The notes under the pieces are model-generated. The model was not told the DNA's origin, ran no database searches, and worked only from the letters and a program-made list of their open reading frames with translations. From Escherichia phage RB16: DNA of 64,000 nucleotides. Below are positions 3,152 through 54,792 of the stretch, piece by piece. The DNA is taken from sequence record NC_014467.1. One strand, given 5' to 3'. Each line of letters opens with the position of its first letter. The first letter of the stretch is position 1. A program made the translations under genes and the position numbers.

Positions 3152-4965
3152 AACAAGAAATTATTATTGGTAACGTGGTTGATGATGGCGCTGGCGATTA
3201 CTTACGCCGTGGTGGTCAGAAAACAAACGCTAACTTTACCGAACTATACGAAAAGCTGGGTGATGGGGAGATCCCACACCCAGCGGGTGCATGGAAAACA
3301 CATTCAGCACCGACTCTGAACCCGATTTTCGGTGATTCATGGGCGCTGAATACCAGCAACAACCGTATTACTGTAAACCTCCCTAAAGGCGGCGTAGGCG
3401 ATTATAACAAGGTTATTCGTCTGCGTGACGTATGGAGTAAATGGGCTGTAAACAACGTCCGTATTGTTCCTGCAACTGGTGATACCATCAAAGGATCACC
3501 AACTTACAAAGAACTGTACAAAGATTTCATGGATGTTGAGTTAGTTTATTGTGCGCCTGGTCGTTGGGAATATGTCGAAAACAAACAGGTTGACAAAATC
3601 ACAACTTCCGATCTGGCTACTGTAGCAAAAGAAACATATATTGCTACACAAGGACAGACAGATTTCCCGAATGTGTTTGGCCCTGGTAACTCGTACAACG
3701 TCCGTGCTCTGGAAGTTTACTATCGTGGTAACTTGCTGTACATCGACGACAAAAACGGATTTGTTGAAGCAAACAGCGATTATGGTTCACCTGGTACAAA
3801 CCCTGGAGAATTGATTGACCTTGATGGTACTAACATACGCCTTAAACGTCCGTGTAACGCTGGAGACACGCTTCAATTCGTAACCTATATGGATGGTATA
3901 GCGACATGGCGATCGACGTATGAGGCGCATACTATGCGCGTATACAACACGGGTGATACTGAACTGGTAAGCGTACCTGGTGAAATCTGGGTTGGCAACC
4001 TTGCAACCAAAAAAGAATTTACCACTGCTGAATTCGGGATCAGTTCTCGTGTATTGATTAATCCGAACTCTTTCGAACTGCTGTTGAACGGTCGCCAACT
4101 TGTTAAAGCAGGTGACGCGGATCTTCCTACATTCGTGTGTGAAGGGGCAGAAGGTTATGATGAAGATAGCTGTTTAGCTAACTCCGGTGCGTGGGTTCCT
4201 TCTGGACAGGACTACAGTTTGATCTTTGTTGATTCCATTGTAACAGGTATCAAATTCAGTCAACCTCTTGAAAGTCGCGATGTTGTTACGATCCGTTGGT
4301 TCAATAACGATATCGGAACTGTAATGGAATGGGAAGGTGTTGGCGGTATTAAAGAGCATACCGATAAAATCTATCTGAACAACGAAGAAGAGTTAACCCT
4401 AGTTGGACGGATTGAATATACCGACTATAACAACCCGTCGCAGAAAACGATGCGTAAAATTACGGAACCTTTCAGCGGTCGATTGCTGGATCTGCAAGCG
4501 TTTTTTGATGTGATTCATCCGATCGGGACGATCTACGAAAACGCGCATAACGACGCAAACCCAGGCGAATACATGGGCTTCGGTATCTGGAAACGGTACG
4601 CAGAAGGTCAATTTATCGCTGGTTGGACAACTGATGCAGCAGATAGCGATTTTGGTTTAAACAACAACGATTTGGATGGTTCTGGACAGCCTACACACAC
4701 AGCAGGTGGTTCTGGTGGTGAACGTGGTTATGAAATTCATCCGATCAACGTTCCACAAATTGAATCAACCGATAAAGTTCTGATTAAGGACGACAACGGG
4801 ATCATTATCATTGGTGGCTGTCAGGTTGACCCAGATGCAACAGGGCCAGGATACACTAAATACCGTGAGGATGTATTGAAAGTAAATCAGGGTAACACTA
4901 CCCCAGATAAACTTAAAACGCTCCCTCCGTATATTACTGCACATCGCTGGATAAGGGTAGCATAA
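3148..4965 (+). CDS. gp10: Baseplate wedge protein gp10
   Basis: 605 aa against T4 gp10 at 602 aa; ATGA-type overlap with gp9; position between gp9 and gp11. Confidence 0.8.
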   Translation: MKQEIIIGNVVDDGAGDYLRRGGQKTNANFTELYEKLGDGEIPHPAGAWKTHSAPTLNPIFGDSWALNTSNNRITVNLPKGGVGDYNKVIRLRDVWSKWAVNNVRIVPATGDTIKGSPTYKELYKDFMDVELVYCAPGRWEYVENKQVDKITTSDLATVAKETYIATQGQTDFPNVFGPGNSYNVRALEVYYRGNLLYIDDKNGFVEANSDYGSPGTNPGELIDLDGTNIRLKRPCNAGDTLQFVTYMDGIATWRSTYEAHTMRVYNTGDTELVSVPGEIWVGNLATKKEFTTAEFGISSRVLINPNSFELLLNGRQLVKAGDADLPTFVCEGAEGYDEDSCLANSGAWVPSGQDYSLIFVDSIVTGIKFSQPLESRDVVTIRWFNNDIGTVMEWEGVGGIKEHTDKIYLNNEEELTLVGRIEYTDYNNPSQKTMRKITEPFSGRLLDLQAFFDVIHPIGTIYENAHNDANPGEYMGFGIWKRYAEGQFIAGWTTDAADSDFGLNNNDLDGSGQPTHTAGGSGGERGYEIHPINVPQIESTDKVLIKDDNGIIIIGGCQVDPDATGPGYTKYREDVLKVNQGNTTPDKLKTLPPYITAHRWIRVA

Positions 4966-5627
4966 TGACACAATTTATTTCAAAGACAAGGGAGGGGGCG
5001 AAAGTCCCTTCCCGTGAAGCAGACTTTTTGCAATATGAAATGGGTACTAAAGACCCTCTTATCGGTGGTAAACGTACTATCGGTGGTGCAAACGTCGATC
5101 AGCTTCGTAAAGGGGTAGATTATCCCAACGTGCAATCAGCAATCGATGACCTGTATACTCTGTCTCAACAGATCCCGATCAACGGGGTTATCATGATGAC
5201 AGAAGACAGTCCTCCGACCGCTGTTCAGCAGGTAGAGACTATAACTTTTGATGGTACTGTACAAAACACAGATCCAGACCAGACAAAAGCAACAATTCAT
5301 GTTTATGGATTCCCGTTCGTGTTCGATAACACAACGAACGCATCAACCGTATGCGAAACAGTCTACAACAAGTTTACTGAATTTGTCAATGACGAAAAAT
5401 ATTTCGATCTGGTAACTCGCAAGGGCTTGAACGGTGAAATTCTGGAAGTTCGGTTTATTGATTGTGTTCCGCATCCGGTAACAAATACTACTGAAAACGG
5501 AATATCTATGGTAGGAACAATCGATGTACAGGCACGATCTGGTTACGGTACGTGGTCGAAACTGGGTGAGGTGGATCTTGCTGTAACTCCGGCAGTTCCA
5601 ATTTTCTACTTTAAACGTATTGCGTAA
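4965..5627 (+). CDS. gp11: Baseplate wedge protein gp11 (short tail fibre attachment)
   Basis: 220 aa against T4 gp11 at 219 aa; synteny; start overlaps the gp10 stop. Confidence 0.8.
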   Translation: MTQFISKTREGAKVPSREADFLQYEMGTKDPLIGGKRTIGGANVDQLRKGVDYPNVQSAIDDLYTLSQQIPINGVIMMTEDSPPTAVQQVETITFDGTVQNTDPDQTKATIHVYGFPFVFDNTTNASTVCETVYNKFTEFVNDEKYFDLVTRKGLNGEILEVRFIDCVPHPVTNTTENGISMVGTIDVQARSGYGTWSKLGEVDLAVTPAVPIFYFKRIA

Positions 5628-5636: not shown

Positions 5637-7028
5637 ATGAGTAACAACACAATTAACCACGTAAGCGATGCGTCCGTTTACGTGACTTTTGATCCGGCAG
5701 GTACGCAATGGCCCTCGACTTTCGTCAACGTACAGCAAGCATTAGCCTCTATAGGCCCGTGGGCGCGTACTGATGTTGGTTTGCCTAACGCGGCTCCTGG
5801 TATGCGTGGTATTGCTGCTATTGCTACCGAGGCGATGATTGACGCAGGGACAGACAACGAAACGATCGTTACTCCTGCATTGCTGGCATATCGTTTACAA
5901 AATCCTCATGCGTCACAAACCGTTTGGGGATATACCAAATACGCAACTGATGCGGAAGCGGTTGATGTCGCAAACGATCTGGTTTCATTAACTCCGCGTT
6001 CGATCAATGTGGTTTTCAATACCAGACACGCATCAGAAACCGTGTGGGGTTCTTCTAAACTGTCAACGACAGCACAGGCAACAGCGGGTACTGATGATAC
6101 AACCTCAATGACACCATTGAAGGTAAAACAAGCAATCTCTGCTCTGGTTCCGGTACAATCCAACGCAACAGAAAGCGCGTTCGGTTTGGTTCAGTTGGCT
6201 ACGGTTTCAGAAGTCCGCGCGGGTACTATTCGCGACGGTTTCGCAATTTCACCGTATACGTTTATTCGTCTGAATGCAACAGAAAGCGATCTGGGTATTG
6301 TTCGCCTAGCAAGTCAGGCAGAAGTAAACGCAGGAACTGATGATACCAAAGCCGTTACCCCGTTAAAACTGGCTAACCTTAAAGGCTCCGGTGGTTCTTT
6401 CGGTTTGGTTAAATTATCAACAGAAGTAAACGCAGGGCTGGCTAACACTGCTCTTTCTGCGGGTGCTAACGTAGTACCGAGCAACCGTGACAGCGCTATC
6501 ACTGGTGGTGCATTGTATCAGGGTTCAGTTGCTGCTGCTAATAAATACCAGACACATAGCGATATCGAAGCATCGTTACCGATTGGCTGTATGATGATGG
6601 CTGCATTTAACTCCGATTACGGAAACCTGTGTATTGCCAACGGTCGCGGGATGTATACATACGAATACCCAGAACTGTTTGCACGTATAGGCTATACGTA
6701 TGGCGGTAGTGGTAACATCTTTAATCTTCCTGATATGCGCGGCGTAGTTGCTCGCGGATTTGATGCGGGACGTGGTTTAGACCCAGGTCGTGGATTTGGT
6801 ACATACCAGCATCACGAAGTACAGTCTCATGAGCATCCATTGCAGATGATCTATCAGTCTGGTGGTAACTTACCATCATGGCAGTGTGTTTATGAACTGC
6901 GTACTGCTGAGAAGAATGACCAGAAATTATACTGGCCTGATCCATCACTCAGTAAAGCAATGGCTGTAGGCGGTAACGAAACGCGAATGAAGAACCTTGC
7001 GGTCAACTATGTAATTCGAGTACGATAA
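5637..7028 (+). CDS. gp12: Short tail fibre protein gp12-like
   Basis: 463 aa; repeated tail-fibre motif (A.TD.G..RLA/LAT..EV.AGTDDT) shared with the gp34-like protein in this window; His-rich C-terminal segment HHEVQSHEH; position between gp11 and wac. Confidence 0.7.
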   Translation: MSNNTINHVSDASVYVTFDPAGTQWPSTFVNVQQALASIGPWARTDVGLPNAAPGMRGIAAIATEAMIDAGTDNETIVTPALLAYRLQNPHASQTVWGYTKYATDAEAVDVANDLVSLTPRSINVVFNTRHASETVWGSSKLSTTAQATAGTDDTTSMTPLKVKQAISALVPVQSNATESAFGLVQLATVSEVRAGTIRDGFAISPYTFIRLNATESDLGIVRLASQAEVNAGTDDTKAVTPLKLANLKGSGGSFGLVKLSTEVNAGLANTALSAGANVVPSNRDSAITGGALYQGSVAAANKYQTHSDIEASLPIGCMMMAAFNSDYGNLCIANGRGMYTYEYPELFARIGYTYGGSGNIFNLPDMRGVVARGFDAGRGLDPGRGFGTYQHHEVQSHEHPLQMIYQSGGNLPSWQCVYELRTAEKNDQKLYWPDPSLSKAMAVGGNETRMKNLAVNYVIRVR

Positions 7029-7040: not shown

Positions 7041-9329
7041 ATGATTTCAAAACTTAACCCGTTACCAAAGATCCCGTTTGTTGATGGTGTCCCTTCGGAC
7101 ACCACACAAACCCCGATCAACTGGATAATTAACGGCGAAACTCTCGATGGTGCTAAAACCAAAGTCACTAACGAGGGTTCTTTAAACAGGTGCGGTGTTC
7201 TGGTACAAAAGAACGCGGTGCAATTAGAAACCAACACCATTACACAGACTGCAAAAATCAACGAAGTTATCGATCAGGTTAACCTCATTAGTGAAAACCT
7301 CGCGGCTATTTCTGATGAAAGCGTGATTGACAAACTGGATCAGGTTGTTGCTGATGTAGAAGTGTTGAAAGTTGATATGACTGCGGTTCAAGGTTCTACT
7401 GCAAGCAATACCCTGAAAATCCAGGATCTCGATAAAGAGATCGGGACGTGGGACGCTTCAACAGATCCTAAACACCGTACCATTCGAAAAGATATTATTT
7501 TCCTGAAAGGGGAAATGGGTGCGTACCCTGGGTTTAACGAAAACGGCGACGTAGATCCGACATCAACGGGTTCCGGCATGAAATACAAAATCATGACGAA
7601 CGCGCAAGCGATTTCGATTCATGAAGGACGTATTACGCGCCTTGAAGATGATTGGGCTAACTCAGACGTAGGTCATTTAACTGATGAAGTAACCGATCTG
7701 CGTAACGAAATGGGGCCAAAACATTTAGCGACGTTTGAATCTGTATATGTTCGTCTAAACATTATCGGTACTGAGATCACTGGTATCAATTCCGAACTAA
7801 CCAGCATCAACCAATATATCGGTCGTACTGGCACGGGTGGAACTGGTAGTATTTCTGCGCGTATGACTACAGCAGAATCGAATATCGCAACCCTGCAAAC
7901 ACAGATGAATGATTCTGCTACTGGTGTATTACCTCGCGTAATTTCTTTGGAAAATGCTGTCGGTAACTCTCAGATCCCTGGTAGTATTCGTTACGACATC
8001 AGCGCAATCAAACGTGACATCGGTGATATCAACATGATCGTCGGTGAATCAAGCGATGATGGTCTTCGTGGGGAAATGGCTCAGGTTATGACCGATATCG
8101 GTACTGATTCACAGCCTACGAGCATCAAAGGCCGTTTGCTGAACGTTGAGAACACCCAACGTGACGATCACCAGAAACTGATTGACGTTGAATCTGTTGT
8201 TGGTAATACTTCAAGTGGACTCGTTGCGGCTAATATCGCGATGGGTAAAGCTGTTTACGGTGATGCAACGAGTTCTGATCCATTCCTGAAAGACGGTATT
8301 CAGAAAACAGCGCGTGACAGTAAAGCGGCTATCGGTGTAAACACAACCGGATCGGAAACAGGGATCTATAAACTGATTTCAGATTTGACTGCTCGTGTTG
8401 CTGCACTTGAAAGCGGTACTGGTGGCGAACTTGAACAACGTGTTTCTGATTTGGAAACCAATAAAGCATCGCATCAGGACGTTGCAAACGCATTGGTTCC
8501 GTATATTACCGAAGCGGAAGCAGATGTTAAGTACGAACCGAAGAAAATTCCGTTATCGTTTACGCAAAACCTTGTTAGGCGTGGCGATTATATCGAAGGT
8601 GATGACATTTCTTTCATGGTTACGGTAACAGGTGGTAAACTGCCTTATGTCTACCAGTGGAAGAAAGGAACCGCTGATGTAGGTACTAACGCATCGAGCA
8701 TTCTGATCCAAAGCATTACCTCTGCCGACGCTGGCGTGTATAAAGTTGTTGTTACCGATGCAGACAACACCGTAATTACTTCTGACGAAGTGACGGTTGC
8801 TGTTTATCCGGTTCCTCAGTTTGATACTAACCTGGCTGACAAATCGGTGGTTGACGGTGATCCTCTGACTCTGGAAGTTGTATACAGCGGTGGTAAACCT
8901 CCGTACACTTACGAATGGTTCAAAGATAACTCTGTTATCTCTGGGGAAACATCAGCAACATTTACCAAATCTGCTGTTACAAGCGCTGATGCTGGTGAAT
9001 ACTATGTTTCTGTAACTGACGCAATGAACAACCAAAACGATTCAGTGAAAGCAACCGTGACTGTAACACCTCGTCCGGCTCTTGCATTCACTACGGATCT
9101 GAGTGCTACTAAATCATACAGCACAGGTGCTAACATGGATCTTGCTGTTGTCGTGACTGGTGGTAAAACACCATATACGTATAAATGGTTTAAAGACACT
9201 GCGGAAATTTCCGGTCAGACAGGCGCAAGCCTTACCACTGTAGCAGAAGATGGGGTGTATAAAGTCGAAGTGACGGATGCACTAACGACTAAAATAACAT
9301 CAACTGAATGCACGGTAACTGTGGCATAA
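7041..9329 (+). CDS. wac: Fibritin (wac) homolog with a C-terminal extension of three Ig-like repeats
   Basis: N-terminus LP.IPFVDG...INWIINGE resembles the T4 fibritin N-terminus; long coiled-coil-like middle; three ~90-aa repeats GGK(L/P)PY.Y.W(K/F)K...Y.V.VTDA at the C-terminus. Confidence 0.75.
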   Translation: MISKLNPLPKIPFVDGVPSDTTQTPINWIINGETLDGAKTKVTNEGSLNRCGVLVQKNAVQLETNTITQTAKINEVIDQVNLISENLAAISDESVIDKLDQVVADVEVLKVDMTAVQGSTASNTLKIQDLDKEIGTWDASTDPKHRTIRKDIIFLKGEMGAYPGFNENGDVDPTSTGSGMKYKIMTNAQAISIHEGRITRLEDDWANSDVGHLTDEVTDLRNEMGPKHLATFESVYVRLNIIGTEITGINSELTSINQYIGRTGTGGTGSISARMTTAESNIATLQTQMNDSATGVLPRVISLENAVGNSQIPGSIRYDISAIKRDIGDINMIVGESSDDGLRGEMAQVMTDIGTDSQPTSIKGRLLNVENTQRDDHQKLIDVESVVGNTSSGLVAANIAMGKAVYGDATSSDPFLKDGIQKTARDSKAAIGVNTTGSETGIYKLISDLTARVAALESGTGGELEQRVSDLETNKASHQDVANALVPYITEAEADVKYEPKKIPLSFTQNLVRRGDYIEGDDISFMVTVTGGKLPYVYQWKKGTADVGTNASSILIQSITSADAGVYKVVVTDADNTVITSDEVTVAVYPVPQFDTNLADKSVVDGDPLTLEVVYSGGKPPYTYEWFKDNSVISGETSATFTKSAVTSADAGEYYVSVTDAMNNQNDSVKATVTVTPRPALAFTTDLSATKSYSTGANMDLAVVVTGGKTPYTYKWFKDTAEISGQTGASLTTVAEDGVYKVEVTDALTTKITSTECTVTVA

Positions 9330-9364: not shown

Positions 9365-10288
9365 ATGATTACGAACAATCCTGAACAATTGAAGGATGAA
9401 ATTCTTCGTCGTCTGGGCGCACCAATCATCAAAATCGAAATCACACAAGACCAGATTTACGATTGCATTCAACGCGCACTGGATCTGTATGCGGAATATC
9501 ACTACAACGGAACAAACAAAAGTTACATTATCCTTACGTTAGGCGAAGACAACCCGCGAAACGTATTTGATTTGAGTAAAGAACATATTTTCGCGGTTAC
9601 AAAAGTATTGCGTACAAATATCGGTTCATTGGTTTCTATGGACGGTACAGCGGTTTATCCGTGGTTTACTGATTTCCTGATGGGGCTTACTGGTGGTTCT
9701 CTGGGCGGTCGCTGTGCATCAAGCGTGTACGGTATGAATGCATATGGCGCGGATCTGGGGTATTTTACACAGATGATGTCATATCAACGTTCAATGCAAG
9801 AGTTGCTGGCTCCATTACCTGATTACTGGTACAACGACGACACTGGTCAGTTTTGTGTATGGGGTAAAGTCAACAACGGTGATATTATTGTCATTGAAGT
9901 GATGGTAAGATCCTTTGTCGATGTTCCTAGTGCCGTAGGAAGCGTTGCAGGATACGCTACAGCGGGTTCTAACGCAGTAGAAGACCAATCCATAGCCGAC
10001 ATCTACGATAACCCGTATAACGCGGTTGTGGGCGGTGTACGAGCGGGACAGGGTACAACTGTTACTGGTGGAACCTCTGCATATAACAACCGTTGGGTAA
10101 AAGACTACTCAACCGCGCTGGTAAAAGAAATCAACGGGCAAATTCTGGCTAAGTTTCAGGGTATGCAATTGCCTGGTGGTGTTGCTCCAGATGGAACACG
10201 ACTGATTCAGGAAGCGGAAACCAAATTACAAGGATTGCGCGACGAACTGATTTCTATGTCTGACGCAGTTCCTATTATTATGGTGTAG
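9365..10288 (+). CDS. gp13: Neck protein gp13
   Basis: 307 aa against T4 gp13 at 309 aa; synteny between wac and gp14. Confidence 0.7.
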   Translation: MITNNPEQLKDEILRRLGAPIIKIEITQDQIYDCIQRALDLYAEYHYNGTNKSYIILTLGEDNPRNVFDLSKEHIFAVTKVLRTNIGSLVSMDGTAVYPWFTDFLMGLTGGSLGGRCASSVYGMNAYGADLGYFTQMMSYQRSMQELLAPLPDYWYNDDTGQFCVWGKVNNGDIIVIEVMVRSFVDVPSAVGSVAGYATAGSNAVEDQSIADIYDNPYNAVVGGVRAGQGTTVTGGTSAYNNRWVKDYSTALVKEINGQILAKFQGMQLPGGVAPDGTRLIQEAETKLQGLRDELISMSDAVPIIMV

Positions 10289-10296: not shown

Positions 10297-11043
10297 ATGC
10301 AAAACTGGGATGAAAGTTTATTCGCTCAGTTGTCAACGGGGGAGGGAGTCGATCGCAACTTAAAGGATCAAGTCACTAACCCGTATGTAAACTGGTACAA
10401 ATATAACCCAACACAACAGCTACATGATTCACTTACAGCAGAATCAATCCAGATGAAATCACCTGATATGTATTATGTCAGACGTGAATTTGTGAATATA
10501 GATAAAATTCTGGGTGAAGACCGAGAGTCTAAATTCACGAAATCGTGGAAGATCGCTGCATATATTGAATCATATGCTAACTATGAAGGACAGCGGGACT
10601 TCTTTAGAAAATTCGGGTTGAGTTCTAACGACGAAATGACGCTGGTACTAAATCCGCGTTTATTTGCACATCAAACTGATGGTGGTATTCCGGTGCTGGG
10701 GGATTTGGTTTATTTCCCAATGGATAACAGCTTGTTTGAAATTACATGGGTGGAAGCAGATCCGTTCTATCAGTTCGGTGATCGTCCTCAACGTAAAATC
10801 AACCTGGCTAAATTCATCTACACGGGCGAAGAATTGGCTCCTGAATTGCAGCGAAACGAAGGAATCCATATCGAACCTGATGCAGAACTGGATCTTGAAC
10901 CTATTCGAAATCTTGACGGGCTGGCAGATATTAACATTGAACAGTACGAAGAAGACAAAGAATTTGAAAGAGAAGGTGACGAGTTTATCGAATCTTTTGA
11001 TGTTGTCAACGGTCGCGGTTCTCCGTTTGCAAGTCTACCATAA
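10297..11043 (+). CDS. gp14: Neck protein gp14
   Basis: 248 aa against T4 gp14 at 256 aa; synteny. Confidence 0.7.
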   Translation: MQNWDESLFAQLSTGEGVDRNLKDQVTNPYVNWYKYNPTQQLHDSLTAESIQMKSPDMYYVRREFVNIDKILGEDRESKFTKSWKIAAYIESYANYEGQRDFFRKFGLSSNDEMTLVLNPRLFAHQTDGGIPVLGDLVYFPMDNSLFEITWVEADPFYQFGDRPQRKINLAKFIYTGEELAPELQRNEGIHIEPDAELDLEPIRNLDGLADINIEQYEEDKEFEREGDEFIESFDVVNGRGSPFASLP

Positions 11044-11052: not shown

Positions 11053-11826
11053 ATGGGTATAGGCGGAAGTCTATACCCTCTTCAAAGAGGGGTTTATGAT
11101 ATGGTTGCAAAAATCTCTATAGAACAACGAGAACATCAATTAAAAGAACGTTGTGCGGAATTAGAACTATCTTTTGATGGATGGGTAGACCAATCAGCGA
11201 TCACAAAATATTCAAAGTTTTATGTTGTTTGCAGTAAAGGACATAGAACAGAAAAACAGATCAAACCATTTGTCAACAAAAGTCGTCCAAACGGATGTTA
11301 TTTGTGTTCTCCTAAGATGAAAATATCAAAGGAAAACAGAATCGAGGAAATCAAAACTCTTGCAGATTCAATTGGATATACATTCATAGATTTCGTTGGG
11401 GTGTATAAAGATGCTCACACAAAAATATCAATGGTTTGCGATAAAGGCCATAATTGGGATGTAAGTATAGTTGCTTTTCTCAATCAAGGTCATCGCTGTA
11501 AAAAATGCGCAACGTCTGGGTTCAATACGAACAAACCAGCATACGTATACGTACAATCACTATCTGGAAAATTTCTGAAATTTGGGATAACCAACAGAAC
11601 ACCAAAGAAAAGAATGTGTGCGCAATCAAATAAATCCGTTTATAAACACGAACTGGTTTATCAAAAATTATTCGATAAAGGTATTGATGCAATGAGTATT
11701 GAACAGAAGATCAAACAATCTCTTGTTTGTGGCGTAGTTGATAAATCAGATATGATGGATGGATATACAGAAACAACAGATATATCCAATTACGATAAAC
11801 TGTTGAATATTATAGAAGGAGTATAA
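11053..11826 (+). CDS. Endonuclease-like protein with two zinc-ribbon-like motifs and a GIY-YIG/T5orf172-like C-terminal motif; probable selfish insertion between gp14 and gp15
   Basis: Two Cys/His motifs (C.KGH...GC..C and C.KGH...GH.C..C) followed by PAYVYVQSLSGKFLKFGITNRTPKKR, resembling the T5orf172/GIY-YIG core. No gene occupies this position in T4. Start may be 11101 (better SD). Confidence 0.45.
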   Translation: MGIGGSLYPLQRGVYDMVAKISIEQREHQLKERCAELELSFDGWVDQSAITKYSKFYVVCSKGHRTEKQIKPFVNKSRPNGCYLCSPKMKISKENRIEEIKTLADSIGYTFIDFVGVYKDAHTKISMVCDKGHNWDVSIVAFLNQGHRCKKCATSGFNTNKPAYVYVQSLSGKFLKFGITNRTPKKRMCAQSNKSVYKHELVYQKLFDKGIDAMSIEQKIKQSLVCGVVDKSDMMDGYTETTDISNYDKLLNIIEGV

Positions 11827-11828: not shown

Positions 11829-12650
11829 TTGTTTGGATACTGGTATAATAGTTCGCTGCGTAACTACATTGTTCTTATGGGACAATTGTTTAACCATGTT
11901 CAGGTTAAAAGAGTACGCGGCGATCAAGAAAAATTTATTAAGGTTCCAATTACCTACGCATCGAAAGAGAAATTTCTTGCTTCCATGAATAAACTCAACT
12001 ATGCGTATAGTCAGGAAAACGTAGCAAAGACGGAAACCATTTTACCGCGAATGAACCTATCACTGGTCGATCTGCAATATAACGCAATTCGTAAAACCAG
12101 CATAGCGGTCAACCAAAAAATGACGCAATTGCAATCACCCCGCAAGACGATCACACAGTTTAACCCTGTGCCTTATCGTTTAATTTTTGAACTGGGTGTG
12201 TATACGCGATATGAAGACGACATGTTTCAGATCGCAGAACAGATTTTACCGTATTTTCAACCACATTTCAACTGCAAGATTACCGAACTGCATAAGAACG
12301 AAATCACAGTTGACCGAGACATCAAAATCAGTCTCCAGTCGGTTGCACCAGATACAACGTTTGAGGGCGAAGCATCACAGCGCCGACATGTTGAATGGTC
12401 TTTCATGTTCGAATTGCAGGGTTATCTGTACCCGCCTGTTACTGACGTTAAGGGCGAAATCAGAACAGTATACACGGATTTCTTTGCCAATATGAACCCA
12501 TTGGATAAAGATAACTTTGAATCCGTTGATAGTCAAGCCGATCCGGTAGATCTGCCTTTGCAGGATTACACGGGCGAAGAATATATTCAGACGTATTCGC
12601 ACGATAAGCCGATCCCGTCTGGTGATGAACCTCCTAAGCCGAGGGAATGA
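11829..12650 (+). CDS. gp15: Tail sheath stabiliser / tail completion protein gp15
   Basis: 273 aa; N-terminus MFGYWYNSSLRNY and internal YEDDMFQI..QILPYFQPHF match T4 gp15 as recalled; initiates on TTG with AGGAG 8 nt upstream. Confidence 0.9.
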   Translation: MFGYWYNSSLRNYIVLMGQLFNHVQVKRVRGDQEKFIKVPITYASKEKFLASMNKLNYAYSQENVAKTETILPRMNLSLVDLQYNAIRKTSIAVNQKMTQLQSPRKTITQFNPVPYRLIFELGVYTRYEDDMFQIAEQILPYFQPHFNCKITELHKNEITVDRDIKISLQSVAPDTTFEGEASQRRHVEWSFMFELQGYLYPPVTDVKGEIRTVYTDFFANMNPLDKDNFESVDSQADPVDLPLQDYTGEEYIQTYSHDKPIPSGDEPPKPRE

Positions 12651-21317: not shown

Positions 21318-22892
21318 ATGTCTAAGAAAAACGAATTGATGGAAAAATGGAACGATCTTCTGGAATCTCAGGAAGGTTTACCGGATATCGCTACCAAATC
21401 CAAAAAACAACTGGTCGCTGCCATTCTGGAAGCACAGGAAAAAGACGCTGAAACCGATCCGGTTTATCGCGACGAAAAAATTGTGGAATCCTTCGGTGGT
21501 TTCCTGGCAGAAGCAGAAATTGCTGGCGATCATAACTATGACCCGACCAACATCGCTTCTGGTAAATCCAGCGGTGCTATCACCAACATCGGTCCTGCTG
21601 TAATCGGTATGGTTCGCCGTGCGATCCCTAACCTGATTGCGTTCGACATTTGCGGTGTTCAGCCTATGACTGGTCCTACTGGTCAGGTGTTCGCTCTCCG
21701 TGCTGTCTACGGTAAAGATCCTCTGGCTGGCGGTACTCCGGCAGATGTTCGTGAAGCATTCCATCCGATGTTTGCCCCGGATACCATGTATTCTGGTGAA
21801 GGTGCTCACACTGCATTCTCGAAAATCACCACTGGTACAGCGATCGCTACTGGCGCTATCGTATACCACATTTTCCAGGAAACTGGTATTGCATACTTCC
21901 AGAACGTTACCTCTGGCAACGTAACTGTAACTGGTGCTGATCCGGCTGCTCTGGATGCTGCTGTAATCGCAGAGAACGAAAAAGGTACTCTGGCTGAAAT
22001 CTCTGTTGGTATGGCTACCAGTGTAGCAGAACTGCAAGAGAACTTCAACGGTTCCAGCTCTAACCCGTGGAACGAAATGGCTTTCCGTATCGACAAACAG
22101 GTTATCGAAGCCCGTAGCCGTCAACTGAAAGCACAGTATTCTGTTGAACTGGCACAGGATCTTCGCGCTGTTCACGGTATGGACGCTGACGCAGAACTGT
22201 CTGCAATTCTGGCAACTGAAATCATGCTGGAAATCAACCGCGAAATCGTTGATCTGATCAACTATACCGCTCAGGTTGGTAAATCTGGTTTCACCCAGAC
22301 CGTAGGCTCTAAAGCTGGCTCCTTCGACTTCCAAGATCCGGTAGATATTCGCGGCGCTCGTTGGGCTGGTGAAAGCTACAAGGCTCTGCTGATTCAGATC
22401 GACAAAGAAGCGAACGAAATCGCACGTCAAACAGGCCGTGGTGCTGGTAACTTCATCATCGCTTCCCGTAACGTGGTTTCCGCTCTGGCTCGTATCGACA
22501 GCGGCATCACTCCGGCAAGTCAAGGTCTCCAGAAGACTCTGAACGTTGATACCACGAAAGCAGTATTCGCTGGTGTTCTGGGTGGCACTTACAAAGTGTA
22601 CATCGACCAGTACGCTCGCCAGGATTACTTCACCGTTGGCTTCAAGGGCGACAACGAAATGGATGCTGGTATCTACTACGCGCCATACGTTGCACTGACC
22701 CCGCTGCGTGGTTCTGATCCGAAGAACTTCCAGCCAGTAATGGGCTTCAAAACTCGTTACGGTATCGGTATCAACCCGTTTGCGAACTCTCGCTCTCAGG
22801 CTCCGGCAGATCGTATCACCTCTGGTATGATCAGCAAAGAAATGTGCGGTAAAAACGCATACTTCCGTAAGGTCTGGGTTAAGGGACTTTGA
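21318..22892 (+). CDS. gp23: Major capsid protein gp23
   Basis: 524 aa; near-collinear identity to T4 gp23 as recalled (GPAVIGMVRRAIPNLIAFDICGVQPM, QVFALRAVYGKDP, DKQVIEA.SRQLKAQYS.ELAQDLRAVHGMDADAELS, YYAPYVALTPLRGSDPKNFQPVMGFKTRYGIGINPFA). Confidence 0.97.
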   Translation: MSKKNELMEKWNDLLESQEGLPDIATKSKKQLVAAILEAQEKDAETDPVYRDEKIVESFGGFLAEAEIAGDHNYDPTNIASGKSSGAITNIGPAVIGMVRRAIPNLIAFDICGVQPMTGPTGQVFALRAVYGKDPLAGGTPADVREAFHPMFAPDTMYSGEGAHTAFSKITTGTAIATGAIVYHIFQETGIAYFQNVTSGNVTVTGADPAALDAAVIAENEKGTLAEISVGMATSVAELQENFNGSSSNPWNEMAFRIDKQVIEARSRQLKAQYSVELAQDLRAVHGMDADAELSAILATEIMLEINREIVDLINYTAQVGKSGFTQTVGSKAGSFDFQDPVDIRGARWAGESYKALLIQIDKEANEIARQTGRGAGNFIIASRNVVSALARIDSGITPASQGLQKTLNVDTTKAVFAGVLGGTYKVYIDQYARQDYFTVGFKGDNEMDAGIYYAPYVALTPLRGSDPKNFQPVMGFKTRYGIGINPFANSRSQAPADRITSGMISKEMCGKNAYFRKVWVKGL

Positions 22893-22984: not shown

Positions 22985-23623
22985 ATGAAACACATCATTT
23001 ATAAAATAACAAACACCATCAATAACAAAATATATGTTGGTGCTCACTCAACCGAAGATATCAACGATTCATACATGGGTTCCGGTATTGCAATCAAAAA
23101 AGCGCAAAAGAAATATGGTATGGAACATTTCACAAAAGAAATACTTCATGTATTTGATACCCGTGAAGAAATGTATGAGAAGGAAAGGGAAATAGTTGAT
23201 ATTGAATTCATAAATCGACCAGATACATATAATGCTGGTATTGGTGGTAAAGGTGCTCCAATGGCGTTGATTGGATGGAGTGATGAACAACGCAAGCTGA
23301 TTTCCGAAAATACTTCGAAAGCTATGCAAACTCCAGAAATGCGCGAACGCCTTTCAAAAATAAAAACAGGGAAGAAGCAATCAGAAGAATCCAACAGGAA
23401 GCGTTCAGAGACTATCAAAGCTATGTACAAGGGTTCTGCATTCGACAGAACCGGATCTAAGCTCACAGACGCGCACAAGGCCAAAATAAGCCGTTCTGTG
23501 TCGATAGATGGAGTTGTTTACGCAAGCGGTTCCGATGCTTCTAAAGCGTTGGGGCTTTCTCGATCTGGCCTTGATTACCGTTTAAAGAGTGACAAATTTC
23601 CTGAATGGAAATTCGTTGCATAA
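22985..23623 (+). CDS. GIY-YIG homing endonuclease (seg-like; same position as T4 segD between genes 23 and 24)
   Basis: N-terminal GIY-YIG motif IIYKITN...KIYVGAHS; basic C-terminal half typical of a DNA-binding domain; inserted between gp23 and gp24. Confidence 0.8.
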   Translation: MKHIIYKITNTINNKIYVGAHSTEDINDSYMGSGIAIKKAQKKYGMEHFTKEILHVFDTREEMYEKEREIVDIEFINRPDTYNAGIGGKGAPMALIGWSDEQRKLISENTSKAMQTPEMRERLSKIKTGKKQSEESNRKRSETIKAMYKGSAFDRTGSKLTDAHKAKISRSVSIDGVVYASGSDASKALGLSRSGLDYRLKSDKFPEWKFVA

Positions 23624-23661
23624 ATAAACAATATACTCCCTCTAATTCAGGAACCAAAGAA

Positions 23662-24960
23662 ATGAGTGATAAACACTACACAATTCACAAGTTGATGCGT
23701 CAGTCTGCGCTTCCGTCTGGTAAACGCGAAAAGGTTATCAACGAAGCAACAGGCACGACCGATATCAACGTACAGAACACGCGCCCAGAACTGGTTTCTT
23801 TGACTCGCGCTGTGAACAACCTGATCTATCATGAACTGGTTGCTGTACAAGAAACGGATTTACCAGTAGCTACCCTTTTCGGTGTTCGTTATCGCAACCC
23901 TAATGGGGACATGACTTTCTCCAGCGCTGCAACCTATTCAGGCCGCATATCTGGACGTACAGACATCGACGATATCGATCTGGCTAAGGCATACGTCAAA
24001 GGCGATTTATTCAAGCACGATGTCACTGACGTTGTGTATGAGGTCATCGAACCTGTAAAGCTAAACGCGCTGGATACTGATAAAGACACCGCAATCATGA
24101 AAGCTGTGTTCCAAAGTAAAATTCGTTTGGTTAGCGAAGCCGCAGACACTTCAAAATATGAAACCAGTGAAGATATCGCATCAACCTCTTTCCAGATGGA
24201 TCGTTGGAACATTCCGGTTCGTTCACGTAAGTTTAAAACTGAAATGACCGTGGAATTGATGCAGGATCTGGAAGCAAACCAGTTTGAAGCCGATGGGGTA
24301 ATTGAAGATATCCTGGGTACGGTTGCAAGCGAAGAAGTCAACAAAGATATTATTCAGACGCTGATCACCGTTTCCAAACGATATAACGTTGATGGTGTAG
24401 TTGTCGATGGTATTTTTGACGGTACAACCACATACACTGCGAAGGATGCTCCAGCATTGGGCCGCATACTCTATCAATTAGCGTGCGAAATGGGCCAAGA
24501 AATGAATAGAACGACTTCATTTGATGCAACCTACGTCCTCGCTAGTGCTCGCGTTGTAGGCGTTCTGGCTGCGTCTGGTTGGATGACCGAAACCGACGAA
24601 CAACACCCGCTGGCAACTGGTAAACTTCAAAACGGTTATTATGTCTATACCGACACGAATACACCGTTTGATTATCTGCTTACCGGATGCAAATACGATC
24701 TGGGTGATATGGATCACGTAGGTTCTCTGTTCTTCACTCCGTACACCGAAGCGGATGATGCAGGTTCAATCAAGGTATCCGTAGATCCTGCATCACTGCA
24801 ACCGAAAGTTGCTATTCTGATGCGTTACGGTTTATCTGTGAACCCATACACAACGGAATCCGACTCTGAACGGTTGACCAAAGGCGATGACTGGTCGAAT
24901 CTGGCTGGTAAATCCAAACTCAGTCAAATCGTAGGTATTAAATTACCTAAGCTGGGTTAA
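23662..24960 (+). CDS. gp24: Capsid vertex protein gp24
   Basis: Similarity to T4 gp24 and gp23 as recalled (LTRA...LIY..V..Q.T..PVA, ASARV.G.LAASGW, NPYT); start placed at the ATG at 23662 (MSDKHY) rather than the track start at 23605, which overlaps the seg-like gene. Confidence 0.9.
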   Translation: MSDKHYTIHKLMRQSALPSGKREKVINEATGTTDINVQNTRPELVSLTRAVNNLIYHELVAVQETDLPVATLFGVRYRNPNGDMTFSSAATYSGRISGRTDIDDIDLAKAYVKGDLFKHDVTDVVYEVIEPVKLNALDTDKDTAIMKAVFQSKIRLVSEAADTSKYETSEDIASTSFQMDRWNIPVRSRKFKTEMTVELMQDLEANQFEADGVIEDILGTVASEEVNKDIIQTLITVSKRYNVDGVVVDGIFDGTTTYTAKDAPALGRILYQLACEMGQEMNRTTSFDATYVLASARVVGVLAASGWMTETDEQHPLATGKLQNGYYVYTDTNTPFDYLLTGCKYDLGDMDHVGSLFFTPYTEADDAGSIKVSVDPASLQPKVAILMRYGLSVNPYTTESDSERLTKGDDWSNLAGKSKLSQIVGIKLPKLG

Positions 24961-49504: not shown

Positions 49505-52500
49505 ATGGTAGCTAAATCATTCCGCGCCACAAGTGGCCTTGATGCTGCTGGCGAAAAAGTTATCAACGTTGGTAAAGCATCCCGCTCTGTGTTGAGCGAC
49601 GGCGTGAACGTTGACTTTTTTAACGAATTTAACACGATCCAACAATACGATTCTACCCGTGGTTATGCTGCGTTTATGGCTATCATGTACGCGCGTCGTA
49701 TTTGGTACGCTCGCGCAGATATTCCATCACCAGCGGGTGCTTTCGATGAAACAAAATGGATCTCAACCCGTAACGATCCAAAATGGGTATATAACAACGT
49801 AACCAGCGCTGACGGTCTCCCTATTGAGTCCGGCACGTACTTAATGGCTGATGGTCGTTTCTCTGAACTGACCTATATTCTGCCAGATTCCCCTGTTGAG
49901 GGTGATATTATCACCATTAAAGACGGTGGCGGTCTTGCAGGTGTAAACAACCTGTTGGTTCGTTCAAACACCCGACAGATCCGTTTGCGTGATATTCAGT
50001 CAAGCTCTTATCGTCTGACTCACCCATACATGACCGTAGCGTTTATCTTTAACGGTAACTTATGGCGTGTTGCTGAAATGCGTGATAACCGCGATTCGCA
50101 GTTTGTGAACGCAACAGGCGCGGGTTCTTTCCAACTACAAGCGGGTATGACAACGTTTCGTAATAGCGGTACTGGTAAAATCACTCTTCAATTGCCGAAA
50201 TATGCAAACGATGGTGACTCTATCACTACCTACGATCTCGATAAACTCAGTTCGGTAAACGTTGCAACTTTACAGGTATATCCTGGTAGCGGTCACACTA
50301 TCACTTATGATAGCATTAACGGCGTAACCTCTGTTGCTTCACAGCGTTCAGGTTATGGTGTGTTTATCTTTGATCAGACTAACAACCGCTGGGTTGTCTA
50401 TGATGGGGATAACCGCGTTCGTCTGCGTCGTATCAGTGACGACCTGAACATGCTCCCGAATGATTATGTTTTCGTTACTCCTATTGCTGGGAACCCTCCT
50501 ACAGTACGTAACGTAACATTAACCCTCCCGCAAGATGTTGCAGAAGGGGATCGCGTGTACATCAGTATGTACATGATGGGTAAAACGCAGAACTGTACGA
50601 TCAAGGTTAAAGATGGTTCCGGTGAAACGATCCGCACCAACAAAAACATGATGCAGTTCCCACAGCGTAAGGATTATCCGCCTAATGATTGGTTCAGTGT
50701 TGACACTCTGACTTTCAACGCCGATACTGACTACCTTCCATACATGGAATTGTCGTATCTGAAAGCTACGAAAGAATGGGTAGTTGCACAATATCGCCCA
50801 ATCATTGAACGTGTCGATCCAACAAACCGTTCTCGTCTGGGTGTGATCGCGCTGGCTACACAAGCAGAAGTAAACAAAAACTTGGAAGATTTACCGTCTG
50901 ATGAACTGGCAGTAACCCCGCGCACACTGGCGAATAAAACCGCTACTGAAACGCGTCGTGGTATTGCTCGACTCGCAACGACAGCAGAAGTTAACCAGAA
51001 CACAACGGCTACTTTCTTGGATGACGTAATCGTAACGCCTAAAAAGCTAAACGAACGTACAGCAACGGAAGATCGTCGCGGTGTGCTGGAAATCGCAACC
51101 CAGGCAGAAACAAACGCGGGTACTGATGACACTACCGCAATAACGCCTAAGAAGCTCGATACGCGTCGTGCAAGCGAAACCTTAGCAGGTATCGGAAAAC
51201 TTGTCACAACGGGTGCTACGACAGCGGAGGGGGCTTTACGTGGGGATGCAGGGACTAACGTCTACAACTTCAACAACGGTGTTGATCTGATCACTCCTAA
51301 ATCGTTGAACGAGAAGACGGCGACCGAAAAATCGAAAGGTTTAGTTGTTCTGGCAACGGAAAACGAAGTTATTACGGGCGCTGCTGCTGGATCTGCTACC
51401 ATGCCGATCGTAGTCACTCCCGAAATGCTTCACCGTAAGACAGCAACAGAAACGCGTATCGGTTTGATTGAAATTGCAACTCAGGCAGAAACGAACACGG
51501 GAACCGATGATTTACGGGCGGTTACTCCGAAGAAACTGAATGATCGCAAAGCAACAGAAGCCCTTGATGGTATTATCGCGCTGGCAAGCACTTCCGAAAT
51601 TGCAGCAGGGACAGTAACCAATAAAGCGGTTGTTCCGGTGAAACTGAAAGAGTTCTTCGATGTTACTGGACATATTGCGGTTGCAACTGATGATGGTTTG
51701 ACTCAATCCGGTACTATCTGGACAACGGTTAACCTGGGGATTGCGTCTGCTACTGAAACACAGCGCGGTACTTTACGTGTTGCGACTCAGGGTGAAACTG
51801 ATGCGGGTACTCTGGATACCGTGTTCATTACGCCTAAAAAACTGCAAGCGAAGAAAGCGACGGATACCGCCGAAGGTATTATTCGTTGTGCGACTAACGC
51901 GGAAGCGGGTGCGGGTACTGCTACTAACTTGGCAATTACTCCGGCTACCATGCAGTTCTTGAACGGTACTGATCCGGCTTGGGGTGCTACAACATTGCGC
52001 CGTGGTGCGGTGTTTATCACTACCAAATCGAATACGTTCATCGGTGATAATCTGGTTGGTTCTACTCAGCCTGTAGATAGCTATCTGGAAGATTTCTACG
52101 CTGTATCGCCTCGCGGTCTGAACTTTGCTCTGCAAAACTTCTTACCGAAAATGGCAACAGCACAGAATAGCTTGAGTCTGGGCGGTGTGGTAGCTGCAAG
52201 CTGGATGCGTCGTGATGCGGATCAAACCGTAACGGGCAACAACACGTTCAACGGTACAAGCAACTTTGTTGGTAATGTAACAACTAACGGGACTCTGACG
52301 GCTAACGCTGCGGTAACTGTTAACAACACCGTAACAACAAACAATAACATTAACCAGTCTGCGAAAGCAAACACGGTTTATGCTAATACTGTTTTGAGTA
52401 CGGCAACCGCTGGAACTAAAAACTTGCTTCGTACCTTCCGTGGCGGTGTGACGGATACTACCTGGCATGAAACTGTTCAGGCAAGCGTGTATCGACTGGC

Positions 52501-53164
52501 AACAGGTACAACGGATCTGGTTGATGTTCTGACTGTAGGTGATATCAGTAACGGTGCTCTGGCGTACTACGGTACGAACATTCGCCTGAATGGTAAAGCC
52601 CTGGCTAACATCAACACTGCTGGTGATCTGTTTGTTGCAAGTGATGCGACTCCTACGGTACAATTACGAACCGCTGCAACTAACGGTTGGAACGGTGTAA
52701 CAATCAGTAACGATAACGGGACAACCACTGCAACCGTGATCAACACCCGAAACTTTACCCAGCATCTTGACAGTACCTATGTCAATACAGCGGGTGATAC
52801 TATGACTGGTGCGCTGTCAGTTAGCGTAAACGGCACGGGTGGACGCTTTACCAGTGTGAGCGGTACGGCACATGTTCAGGCGGGTGATTTCTCTGGTAAC
52901 GTCCAGAAGATGCGCTTAACTGGCATTGACGATAAGGTATTGACTGAATTCAATATCAATATCACCGATTACAACAAAGCGATGATCAACGGAAACCTGA
53001 TCTATCATGCAGGTCGTAAACCAACTCCGGCAGAAATTGGGGCGGTTGCGGTTGCGGGTTCAACTGTAGATACTCTGGTTGTTCGTGATTACATCAAAAT
53101 CGGAAACGTAAAAATCTTCGCAAATCCAACAACTAAGACTTGTGAATTTGTGTGGGAGGAATAA
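49505..53164 (+). CDS. gp34: Long tail fibre proximal subunit gp34
   Basis: 1219 aa; matches T4 gp34 as recalled (RLGVIALATQA, TATETRRGIARLATTAEVNQNT, TPKKLNERTATE, ATQAETNAGTDDTT, C-terminal IRDY..IGNV.I). T4 gp34 is 1289 aa. Confidence 0.9.
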   Translation: MVAKSFRATSGLDAAGEKVINVGKASRSVLSDGVNVDFFNEFNTIQQYDSTRGYAAFMAIMYARRIWYARADIPSPAGAFDETKWISTRNDPKWVYNNVTSADGLPIESGTYLMADGRFSELTYILPDSPVEGDIITIKDGGGLAGVNNLLVRSNTRQIRLRDIQSSSYRLTHPYMTVAFIFNGNLWRVAEMRDNRDSQFVNATGAGSFQLQAGMTTFRNSGTGKITLQLPKYANDGDSITTYDLDKLSSVNVATLQVYPGSGHTITYDSINGVTSVASQRSGYGVFIFDQTNNRWVVYDGDNRVRLRRISDDLNMLPNDYVFVTPIAGNPPTVRNVTLTLPQDVAEGDRVYISMYMMGKTQNCTIKVKDGSGETIRTNKNMMQFPQRKDYPPNDWFSVDTLTFNADTDYLPYMELSYLKATKEWVVAQYRPIIERVDPTNRSRLGVIALATQAEVNKNLEDLPSDELAVTPRTLANKTATETRRGIARLATTAEVNQNTTATFLDDVIVTPKKLNERTATEDRRGVLEIATQAETNAGTDDTTAITPKKLDTRRASETLAGIGKLVTTGATTAEGALRGDAGTNVYNFNNGVDLITPKSLNEKTATEKSKGLVVLATENEVITGAAAGSATMPIVVTPEMLHRKTATETRIGLIEIATQAETNTGTDDLRAVTPKKLNDRKATEALDGIIALASTSEIAAGTVTNKAVVPVKLKEFFDVTGHIAVATDDGLTQSGTIWTTVNLGIASATETQRGTLRVATQGETDAGTLDTVFITPKKLQAKKATDTAEGIIRCATNAEAGAGTATNLAITPATMQFLNGTDPAWGATTLRRGAVFITTKSNTFIGDNLVGSTQPVDSYLEDFYAVSPRGLNFALQNFLPKMATAQNSLSLGGVVAASWMRRDADQTVTGNNTFNGTSNFVGNVTTNGTLTANAAVTVNNTVTTNNNINQSAKANTVYANTVLSTATAGTKNLLRTFRGGVTDTTWHETVQASVYRLATGTTDLVDVLTVGDISNGALAYYGTNIRLNGKALANINTAGDLFVASDATPTVQLRTAATNGWNGVTISNDNGTTTATVINTRNFTQHLDSTYVNTAGDTMTGALSVSVNGTGGRFTSVSGTAHVQAGDFSGNVQKMRLTGIDDKVLTEFNINITDYNKAMINGNLIYHAGRKPTPAEIGAVAVAGSTVDTLVVRDYIKIGNVKIFANPTTKTCEFVWEE

Positions 53165-53169
53165 TTTAA

Positions 53170-54771
53170 ATGGCGAATAACGAATTTATGGCGTTATTCG
53201 GCCCTGATAGTTTCACGGCGAATGTGTTTTCAGAAGCAAACGCCGTGAAATATCGCCTTGTTGTCCGTGGAACGAATAACGATTCTGCGGTCAACTCGGT
53301 TGAGGTATCTATTAACGGGGCTGATATTATAAACAGACGAACACAAGCTGCTCGCGGAATTAACCTGGCTGTCATTGATGGAACAACTTTAGCATTATTG
53401 GATTACAAAGCATTCGATATGTATGGTGATCCTGCTACGAACGGGAATGCGATTAAAGACTACCTGAATTCACTTCCAGCGAACAGAATTGTGTGTTTTT
53501 ATACTTTCGATGCTATCAAAAGTGACGATGACTTTTTAGCAACAATGAGGAAAATAGGTTCTGTTGCGTGGCCTGAAACTCGGTTCTTTAATATCCCGAT
53601 CACCACAACCAATTATTCTCACCGTTCATCCTATTCAGCTATCTATTCATCTACGATGAAAAAGATTTGCATGGAAAACTTTGTCGGTGGTGCTGGTAGC
53701 CTGAAAGACAATACGACGAGTTTTGTTGAAGTTGTGTTTGATGAATTCAGTGATATCGGGGTAACTGGTATTCCAGAAAGAATGGTCGATGATGTCCAGA
53801 CATACCAGACATACCAGAATAGCGGGGATCTTTATGGCTTCCACTCTTACGGGACGTGGATTGTTGGTAGTGATGTTTTTCTGGGCGATATCTTCAAATT
53901 CACGGGTGAACTATATTGTTCGCAAGAACTTCGTGATGCAGGGGGGGAAGTTCACCTGTATATGTGGACTGAAAACAGTACCGGACAATGGATCACATCA
54001 ACCATTCTTCGAACAACTGGATTAGCCCCCGATCAGTGGCATTCATTATCAGGATATTTCACTGTTCCGTCAGATCCAGTAAACACCAAAATGGGTTCGC
54101 AGGTATATCATTATCCGTCTACCGTTAAAGTGAGGCTGGCGCAATGTCGCAACGTCCAGATCACAAAAGTACCTCGCGAAGAAATAAACCGGAATGGTGC
54201 TGCGCTTGGTGTGAACGGTGTTCGAATGCAGACACTTTCCGAAGTGGACGCAAGCGGAAATGAGAACCCGATTGATAAATTGCTTTCTCTACCCGTTTCG
54301 CCTACTGGTGTTGCAAGTGATAAGAAAATCATTTCGCATAACTTTGCTGAACTTGATTATATTGTTTCTGATCCGGTTGAATACACTTCGACAAATACAG
54401 CGGAGTACCAGTTCAAAGAATGGACTGCTACCCAGCAAGCGGCGGTAACGAAAGCATCACTAAGCAGTTATGGCTTAAAAGCTGGTGATACGATTCGTAT
54501 GCAATGCCAAATGAAACGCGATGTGAACGCAATCACTAACGGTAAAAGCGCGTATATCATAATACAGTTCTGGGACGCGAATAATACGTATATCTCAGGG
54601 ATCAACATGCGCGATGTTGGTACGATCCCTAACGTATATTCATTCTACAAAAACGAAGGGGTTATTCCTGCTGGTGCTGTTACGTTTGATTTCGGTTTAT
54701 ACCGTTATCCAAACAACACAAACATCGGTACGGTATCGGCTAAAGACGTTAAACTGTCAATCGTGAGATAA
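53170..54771 (+). CDS. Tail-fibre-locus protein in the gp35 (hinge) position; identity uncertain
   Basis: 533 aa ORF between gp34 and the gp36-like distal fibre genes; no motif recognised. Confidence 0.35.
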   Translation: MANNEFMALFGPDSFTANVFSEANAVKYRLVVRGTNNDSAVNSVEVSINGADIINRRTQAARGINLAVIDGTTLALLDYKAFDMYGDPATNGNAIKDYLNSLPANRIVCFYTFDAIKSDDDFLATMRKIGSVAWPETRFFNIPITTTNYSHRSSYSAIYSSTMKKICMENFVGGAGSLKDNTTSFVEVVFDEFSDIGVTGIPERMVDDVQTYQTYQNSGDLYGFHSYGTWIVGSDVFLGDIFKFTGELYCSQELRDAGGEVHLYMWTENSTGQWITSTILRTTGLAPDQWHSLSGYFTVPSDPVNTKMGSQVYHYPSTVKVRLAQCRNVQITKVPREEINRNGAALGVNGVRMQTLSEVDASGNENPIDKLLSLPVSPTGVASDKKIISHNFAELDYIVSDPVEYTSTNTAEYQFKEWTATQQAAVTKASLSSYGLKAGDTIRMQCQMKRDVNAITNGKSAYIIIQFWDANNTYISGINMRDVGTIPNVYSFYKNEGVIPAGAVTFDFGLYRYPNNTNIGTVSAKDVKLSIVR

Positions 54772-54792
54772 AGGGGCGAAAGCCCCTTTTTC
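54771..54792 (+). terminator. Hairpin plus T-run
   Basis: aaggggcgaaagcccctttttc. Confidence 0.55.

Follow-up and report, generated by a model that had tools for sequence, protein, structure and literature searches.

An RB43-type fibritin with three C-terminal immunoglobulin-like domains at the wac locus of Escherichia phage RB16

The wac locus and the fibritin backbone

The DNA analysed here, a stretch of 64,000 nucleotides (nt) from Escherichia phage RB16 (NC_014467.1; the whole stretch is called the window below), carries the gene wac at 7041..9329 on the plus strand. It encodes an RB43-type fibritin, the neck collar or whisker protein, in an open reading frame (ORF) of 762 amino acids (aa) plus a stop. 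Upstream lie gp11 and gp12 (the latter at 5637-7028) and downstream gp13 (9365-10288), gp14, and gp15, an order that is the same in T4 and RB43. The product matches the PHROG 1056 family 'fibritin neck whisker' (E 2.6e-184), and T4 fibritin (2bsg_A) aligns collinearly with aa 9-456 (phmmer, E 8.8e-47). At the nucleotide level, the gene is 99.7% identical to its counterpart in Citrobacter phage vB_Cfr_Xman, 99.6% to that in CfP1, and 99.5% to that in RB43, all annotated as wac, fibritin, or neck whisker, and a nucleotide search found at least 80% of it covered in at least 55 phage records. The RB43 protein (gpwac; AAX78735/AAP04365) has the same length and locus and differs from the window protein at two amino acids (99.7% identity). 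The source of the locus is an RB43-type T4-like phage of the genus Pseudotevenvirus, and we regard both the identity of wac and the domain architecture of its product, a fibritin with three C-terminal immunoglobulin (Ig)-like domains, as near certain.

The N-terminal neck-attachment domain (7041..7238, plus strand; aa 1 to ~66) was delimited by alignment with T4 fragments: aa 9-66 match the crystallised N-terminal pieces of T4 fibritin, 1ox3 and 2ibl, with E ~2e-7. Conservation along the protein peaks here (entropy 0.11 bits, 83% of positions invariant); in T4, this domain binds domain III of gp13 (PMC12929629). The segmented shaft that follows (7239..8498, plus strand; aa ~67-486; entropy 0.19 bits) includes a match to Pfam Fibritin_C (PF07921; aa 373-489; E 5.1e-23, 81.5 bits against a cut-off of 21), and its coiled-coil character is predicted from homology with T4. 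Compared with T4 fibritin (2bsg, 3j2o, and 1aa0-type fragments), the neck-binding domain, the shaft, and the gene position are thus the same, whereas the C-terminal ends differ. The T4 protein ends in a foldon of 27-30 aa, and the window protein has instead an additional coiled-coil segment, a junction, and three Ig domains, 275 extra aa altogether. The lengths given for the two proteins in a first-pass annotation of this DNA, 762 aa against 487 aa in T4, agree with the ORF and with T4 fibritin.

The long ORF is a stable property of the gene. RB43, Buttiauxella phage GuL6, and Cronobacter phage leB each have a 2289-nt frame closed by a single stop, and independently sequenced genomes keep it at 80-99.7% identity; the RB43 gene has in addition been deposited as a separate sequence (AY266305). 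Across the junction and the Ig modules, substitutions are overwhelmingly synonymous in the wac frame, and the ratio of non-synonymous to synonymous substitution rates (dN/dS) of the Ig modules is 0.02-0.15 in comparisons with GuL6 and leB, or about 0.1 in round figures, a sign of purifying selection. No T4-type late promoter (TATAAATA) from which the Ig part could be expressed separately was found within 4-13 kb.

The C-terminal Ig-like modules and their variation

The last 260 residues of Wac (nt 8547-9326) consist of three tandem modules of ~87 aa, all on the plus strand: module A, of the I-set/Ig_3 type (8547..8807; aa 503-589), module B (8808..9071; aa 590-677), which holds the best Pfam Ig_3/I-set/Ig_2 stretch at aa 592-673, and module C (9072..9326; aa 678-762) at the distal end of the protein. 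The modules are joined by short proline-containing linkers. They are 36-49% identical in pairwise comparison, with 26 invariant columns, and each scores 138-145 bits against a profile made from all three. The signature GGK.PY.Y.W.K ... Y.V.VTDA occurs in every one of them, in line with the three tandem repeats of ~90 aa described in the first-pass annotation. That annotation had also correctly placed the array at the C-terminus, but the start given there, 8560, falls 13 nt into module A and one base out of frame; the array begins at 8547.

Domain searches place the modules well within known Ig families. Pfam Ig_3 matches in three stretches (E 2.2e-20, 73.4 bits against a cut-off of 30), and the I-set (E 5e-13, 49.5 bits against 23.7) and Ig_2 (E 3e-13, 50.4 bits against 27) families also score above their gathering thresholds; a Pfam SprB repeat match (E 7.5e-11) covers the GGxxPYxYxW motif. 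All three modules keep the core tryptophan and the [DE]-[AD]-G-x-Y motif without change and have valine in place of both core cysteines. Such a lack of core cysteines is usual for phage Ig-like domains that fold in the cytoplasm, for example those of Hoc.

Structure prediction gave the same answer. An AlphaFold2 model of aa 454-762, computed as a single chain from a 42-sequence alignment, has a mean predicted local distance difference test (pLDDT) score of 89.8 and a predicted template modelling score of 0.71. Over aa 503-762, the pLDDT exceeds 90 throughout, and the chain forms three all-beta sandwiches. Foldseek searches of the PDB with this model retrieved titin I67-I69 (8e-17), followed by LRIG1, DCC, sidekick, and NCAM, as well as the three Ig domains of RB49 Hoc (3shs; 7e-14), with a probability of 1.00 for the titin, sidekick, NCAM, and RB49 Hoc arrays; the neighbours among the viral models of BFVD are phage tail, decoration, and Ig-domain proteins. 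The C-terminal modules of Wac are therefore Ig-like domains, as had been proposed from the repeats, and of the I-set/Ig_3 type, and the concern that they might not adopt this fold is answered by the sandwiches in the model and their structural neighbours. A search for tandem repeats at the DNA level detected none in the Ig region; the repeats are visible at the protein level only, which indicates that the duplications are old. When all six frames of the window were scanned with a hidden Markov model of the module, wac was the only match, so that neither a Hoc nor another protein with this module is encoded in the window.

Outside the fibritins, the nearest relatives of the modules are phage decorations that also face outward: the Hoc-like families PHROG 2973 and PHROG 4069, the major tail protein family PHROG 158, the T5-type decoration protein 5lxk, the tail proteins 9c2d and 9ncf, and the head outer capsid protein of Kosakonia phage Kc283. 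The match to PHROG 2973 (E 4e-58) involves only its Ig part (positions 91-284 of 310). Like the Wac array, Hoc of T4 and RB49 presents an exposed string of I-set Ig domains without the canonical disulphide. However, Hoc is a monomer with a C-terminal capsid-binding domain, whereas the Wac array stands at the C-terminal end of a trimeric neck fibre; a Hoc-type capsid-binding domain is absent from Wac, which ends with module C at aa 762 and whose first 500 aa are fibritin. An Ig domain of the same subfamily also forms the C-terminus of the 'putative neck whiskers protein gp24' in PDB entry 9occ (Wac aa 671-759 against 152-237, E 1.5e-9). This protein of 238 aa comes from a different phage type and has one Ig domain, and no homology to the fibritin N-terminal domain or shaft was detected in it; 'neck whiskers' proteins of ~42-kb Salmonella phages group with it and likewise end in an Ig domain. 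The SprB/CHU_C-type Ig repeats of Bacteroidota adhesins (GhpA, 9flp, E 1e-29) have the GGxxPYxYxW motif in common with Wac, but they belong to bacterial surface proteins with tens of repeats, and the kinship is at the domain level only.

A fibritin with three Ig domains and the idea that it acts as an adhesin are not new, having been published between 2005 and 2013. Letarov & Krisch (2013) report three Ig-like domains in RB43 fibritin and propose a role as an accessory adhesin, crediting the description of the domains in RB43 gpwac to Letarov et al (2005; J Bacteriol 187:1055), and fibritin appears in the list of Ig-bearing myovirus proteins of Fraser et al (2007; cited in PMC4332376). Public protein clusters are already annotated with Pfam Ig domains. 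A literature search for cryo-electron microscopy of neck whiskers with Ig domains yielded no directly relevant study. The module counts found in the literature (Letarov & Krisch, 2013) are one and three only.

A survey of 120 cluster representatives gave a broader series for fibritins of the RB43 type. A single Ig module is found in 77 clusters (571-587 aa), among them KP15 and Miro; two modules occur in Kp_GWPR59, iPHaGe-KPN-12i, and Yersinia JC221 (663-679 aa), three in the window Wac and RB43 (759-770 aa), four in metagenomic relatives (851-853 aa), and five in one metagenomic relative (P0041, 941 aa). At the other extreme, a fibritin of 493 aa (P0050) has none. The fibritins of the KP15/KP27 type (Slopekvirus) and the other members of this series have the shaft, the junction, and the Ig module family in common with the window protein, at 51-92% identity, and differ from it in module number.

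In a tree of the modules of 15 fibritins, grouping is by type and not by phage, with four orthologous types, A to D. They are arranged as A-B, A-B-C (the window), A-B-C-D, A-B-D-C, A-D, or C alone. Type A opens the array in 14 of the 15 typed proteins, and one variant of 571 aa (P0038) carries C as its sole module. Orthologous modules are 72-95% identical, as seen for module B and the second module of other fibritins, versus 36-49% between modules of one protein. Modules thus group by type, with orthologues closer than neighbours, which implies that copy number changes by in-frame gain or loss of whole modules. One A-B fibritin has modules 99% (A) and 94% (B) identical to those of a three-module relative, pointing to a recent loss of C. 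The copy-number series from zero to five, the four types, and their gain, loss, and reordering as whole units are among the small additions of the present analysis to what had been published.

Variability within the protein is highest in the array, with entropies of 0.63, 0.67, and 0.41 bits for modules A, B, and C, respectively. Among the modules, conservation is strongest in C (dN/dS 0.02-0.05). In A and B, the loops vary as much as the strands do, and no loop-focused diversification was apparent in these two modules. Relative to GuL6, the synonymous substitution rate (dS) is 2.0 in module A versus 0.39 in the shaft, a roughly fivefold difference, and this jump at the junction is indicative of recombination at the boundary between shaft and Ig array. 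With module C close again (dS 0.51), the pattern suggests the exchange of a single module by recombination.

The junction segment at the foldon position

Between the shaft and module A lies the conserved junction motif PYITEAEADVKYEPKK (8499..8546, plus strand; aa 487-502), with the family consensus Y-[IY]-T-x-x-[ED]-[AS]-D-x-x-[YF]-x-x-K. It is kept in all variants with zero to five Ig modules and stands directly before the first module where one exists. The first-pass annotation had noted a short foldon-like segment at this point, and its location holds, at aa 487-502, but its likeness to a foldon does not. The resemblance to the T4 foldon is confined to 8 residues (YITEAEAD versus YIPEAPRD; pattern YI[PT]EAxxD), and 8.7% of shuffled sequences attain its local alignment score of 23, which is therefore not significant. 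The junction segment lacks an equivalent of the foldon's hairpin half (DGEWV[LF]LSTFL). A phmmer search of all PDB chains with a 56-aa junction region gave no match at E<=10, which argues that no foldon is present, and the AlphaFold2 model shows a short helix here, predicted with low confidence (pLDDT 56-70), and no hairpin. Moreover, the segment is internal in the window Wac, unlike the C-terminal foldon of T4. We consequently rejected it as a foldon; the junction segment is real and conserved, but the label 'foldon-like' is not supported. According to Letarov & Krisch (2013), only the fibritins of T4 and JS98 fold by means of foldon motifs, whereas folding of the RB43 protein needs sequences within its expanded C-terminal domain.

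The fibritin without an Ig module stops just past the junction motif (...DYYTKVESDAKFQPKAV). It is encoded at 4001-5482 of a 31.6-kb contig from a related T4-like phage (L004; Logan SRR31860671), where gp13 begins 46 nt downstream and no gene lies in between, which excludes a truncated or split gene. The 493-aa protein thus represents a natural minimal C-terminus for an RB43-type fibritin.

Possible roles of the Ig array

Drawing on these features, we propose the following arrangement. The N-terminal domain would anchor the fibritin trimer to the gp13 ring of the neck, and the segmented triple coiled coil would form a shaft of ~50 nm. Where T4 has its 30-aa foldon, each chain passes via the junction motif into the Ig sandwiches A, B, and C. 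RB43 fibritin has been reported, on biochemical grounds, to form a trimeric fibre, and T4 carries twelve fibritin trimers on the gp13 dodecamer (PMC12929629). Three chains with three modules each would give nine Ig domains per fibre and, provided that the phage carries as many trimers as T4 (12), ~108 such domains encircling the neck. Like Hoc, for whose Ig domains weak adhesion to cell surfaces or mucus has been proposed in the literature, and like the Ig arrays of tail and decoration proteins, the array may serve as an accessory, surface-exposed adhesion module of low affinity. It would bind carbohydrates on cell surfaces or in mucus and so raise the odds of the long tail fibres finding their receptor. 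We put the probability of this overall explanation, an RB43-type fibritin whose Ig array is an accessory adhesin, at roughly 0.6; for the outward-facing, low-affinity role of the Hoc type taken by itself, which is argued by analogy, we see an even balance. An array that is the precisely fitted partner of another virion protein appears less likely. The adhesin role is favoured by the variable copy number and order of the modules, the existence of a natural form without Ig modules, the Hoc-like, tail-tube, and decoration relatives, and the independence of the array from gp35 and gp36 described below.

Several points weigh against this proposal. An adhesive role for the Ig domains of a fibritin would follow only from analogy with other proteins. 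The C-terminus of T4 fibritin binds the tail-fibre kneecap and nucleates folding (PMC3004832; PMC3797505), and whatever replaced it might have inherited both functions; the reported need of RB43 fibritin for its expanded C-terminal domain during folding (Letarov & Krisch, 2013) is a further consideration of this kind. The strong conservation of the distal module C could mean a specific partner, and the hypervariable-loop pattern that ligand-driven diversification would leave was not seen in A or B.

Comparison of wac with the tail-fibre knee genes bears directly on the foremost alternative, namely that the Ig array is a docking site that has taken over from the C-terminus of T4 fibritin and holds the long tail fibres at their knee (gp35/gp36) during assembly and in the retracted 'up' state, and so serves environmental sensing and not adhesion. 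The fibritin of T4 touches the gp35 kneecap with its C-terminal end (PMC3004832; PMC3797505), and in the window protein it is the distal module that is most conserved. Both features fit a docking site. Fibritin C-terminal types also reportedly covary with the C-termini of gp36. Yet the window and RB43, with Wac proteins 99.7% identical, have gp35 at 74% and gp36 at 55% identity. Conversely, Klebsiella phage iPHaGe-KPN-12i has nearly the same knee proteins as the window (gp35 99.1%, gp36 94.4%) but a fibritin with two modules instead of three, which is 80.8% identical to the window Wac overall and ~70% in the Ig modules. Within the genus, comparison of these sequences thus indicates that the array evolves independently of gp35 and gp36, which favours an outward-facing accessory adhesin over tail-fibre docking. 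Variation from zero to five modules, each worth ~4 nm, would in addition alter the reach of a docking site, and the order of the modules can differ. Taken together, we consider docking unlikely.

Slightly less probable still is that the array, or module A together with the junction, acts as an intramolecular nucleus of folding and trimerisation that sets the register of the coiled coil from its C-terminal side in place of the foldon. This would suit the requirement of RB43 fibritin for expanded C-terminal sequences and the restriction of foldon-only folding to T4 and JS98 (Letarov & Krisch, 2013), as well as the near-constant position of type A beside the junction (14 of 15 typed fibritins) and the retention of the junction motif in all variants. 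However, the natural 493-aa protein ends past the junction with no extra gene in the 46-nt gap before gp13, the 571-aa form has C and not A beside the junction, and three modules exceed what a nucleus needs. I-set Ig domains are, furthermore, typically monomeric. As a substitute for the foldon, should there be one, the junction motif is a better candidate than the Ig array. Adhesion, docking, and nucleation of folding are not mutually exclusive. Finally, a sequencing artefact joining wac to a separate Ig-domain gene downstream, a possibility that the first-pass annotation had raised and for which the unusual length relative to T4 fibritin is the sole prompt, is ruled out by the one-stop ORF that recurs in independently sequenced genomes, the separately sequenced RB43 gene, the predominance of synonymous substitutions across the junction and modules, and the lack of a late promoter in the region searched, and its probability is negligible.

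Returning to the accessory adhesin, a more speculative extension, which we offer tentatively, is that the whisker tip of the RB43 lineage was freed from docking to the knee and became a cassette site at which Ig modules of the four conserved types A-D are gained, lost, and reordered, in zero to five copies and independently of gp35 and gp36. The collar and whiskers would then be a tunable secondary adhesin, and the junction motif would be the true C-terminal cap that replaced the foldon.

The window is mosaic with respect to these genes. Whereas wac (7041-9329) is RB43-like, comparison of the gp34-gp37 region (49505-59492) with iPHaGe-KPN-12i gave 94-99% identity for gp34, gp35, and gp36 and only 58% for gp37. 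No phage in the compared collection matches both the wac and the gp34-gp36 modules of the window, and its host range may therefore differ from that of RB43, the genome of which has different gp35, gp36, and gp37 genes. The genes at the gp36 position (54823-56970; 715 aa) and the gp37 position (57033-59492; 819 aa) are paralogues. Each product matches PHROG 5667 'long tail fiber distal subunit' starting at residue 1, and the two have C-terminal fibre families in common. This paralogy accounts for a 'gp36' in the window that is far larger than T4 gp36.

Two endonuclease genes were also noted. Downstream of wac, a 257-aa endonuclease-like ORF (11053-11826, plus strand) separates gp14 (10297-11043) from gp15 (11829-12650). 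The ORF has matches to the Pfam CapR homology/zinc-finger domain and to PHROG 681 'endonuclease' (E 8e-63) and relatives annotated as GIY-YIG, and it lies in a patch of low GC content (38.9% in 10-12 kb). Xman, GuL6, and leB have no insert at this site, and RB43 has a different gene, mobE, there, whereas Cronuts, JC03, leE, and Lw1 have copies of the ORF that are 98-99% identical, yet wac genes at only 80-87%. The gp14-gp15 interval looks like an insertion hotspot for homing endonucleases. A further homing-endonuclease ORF of 212 aa (22985-23623, plus strand; PHROG 314, E 2e-59) is located between gp23 (21318-22892) and gp24 (23605-24960) and overlaps the start of gp24 by 19 nt; segD of T4 occupies the equivalent position, but on the opposite strand.

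The discovery value of these results is limited, and what remains is practical and incremental. The phage of the window can be confidently annotated at the wac locus, and the function of Ig domains on whiskers could be tested with the series from zero to five modules, which amounts to a natural set of deletions and insertions. The decoupling of the array from gp35 and gp36 supplies a testable argument for Ig domains that face outward, for adhesion, over domains that face inward, for docking. Given the variant without Ig modules, the junction motif is a candidate for a minimal trimerisation cap, which may interest protein engineers who work with the T4 foldon.

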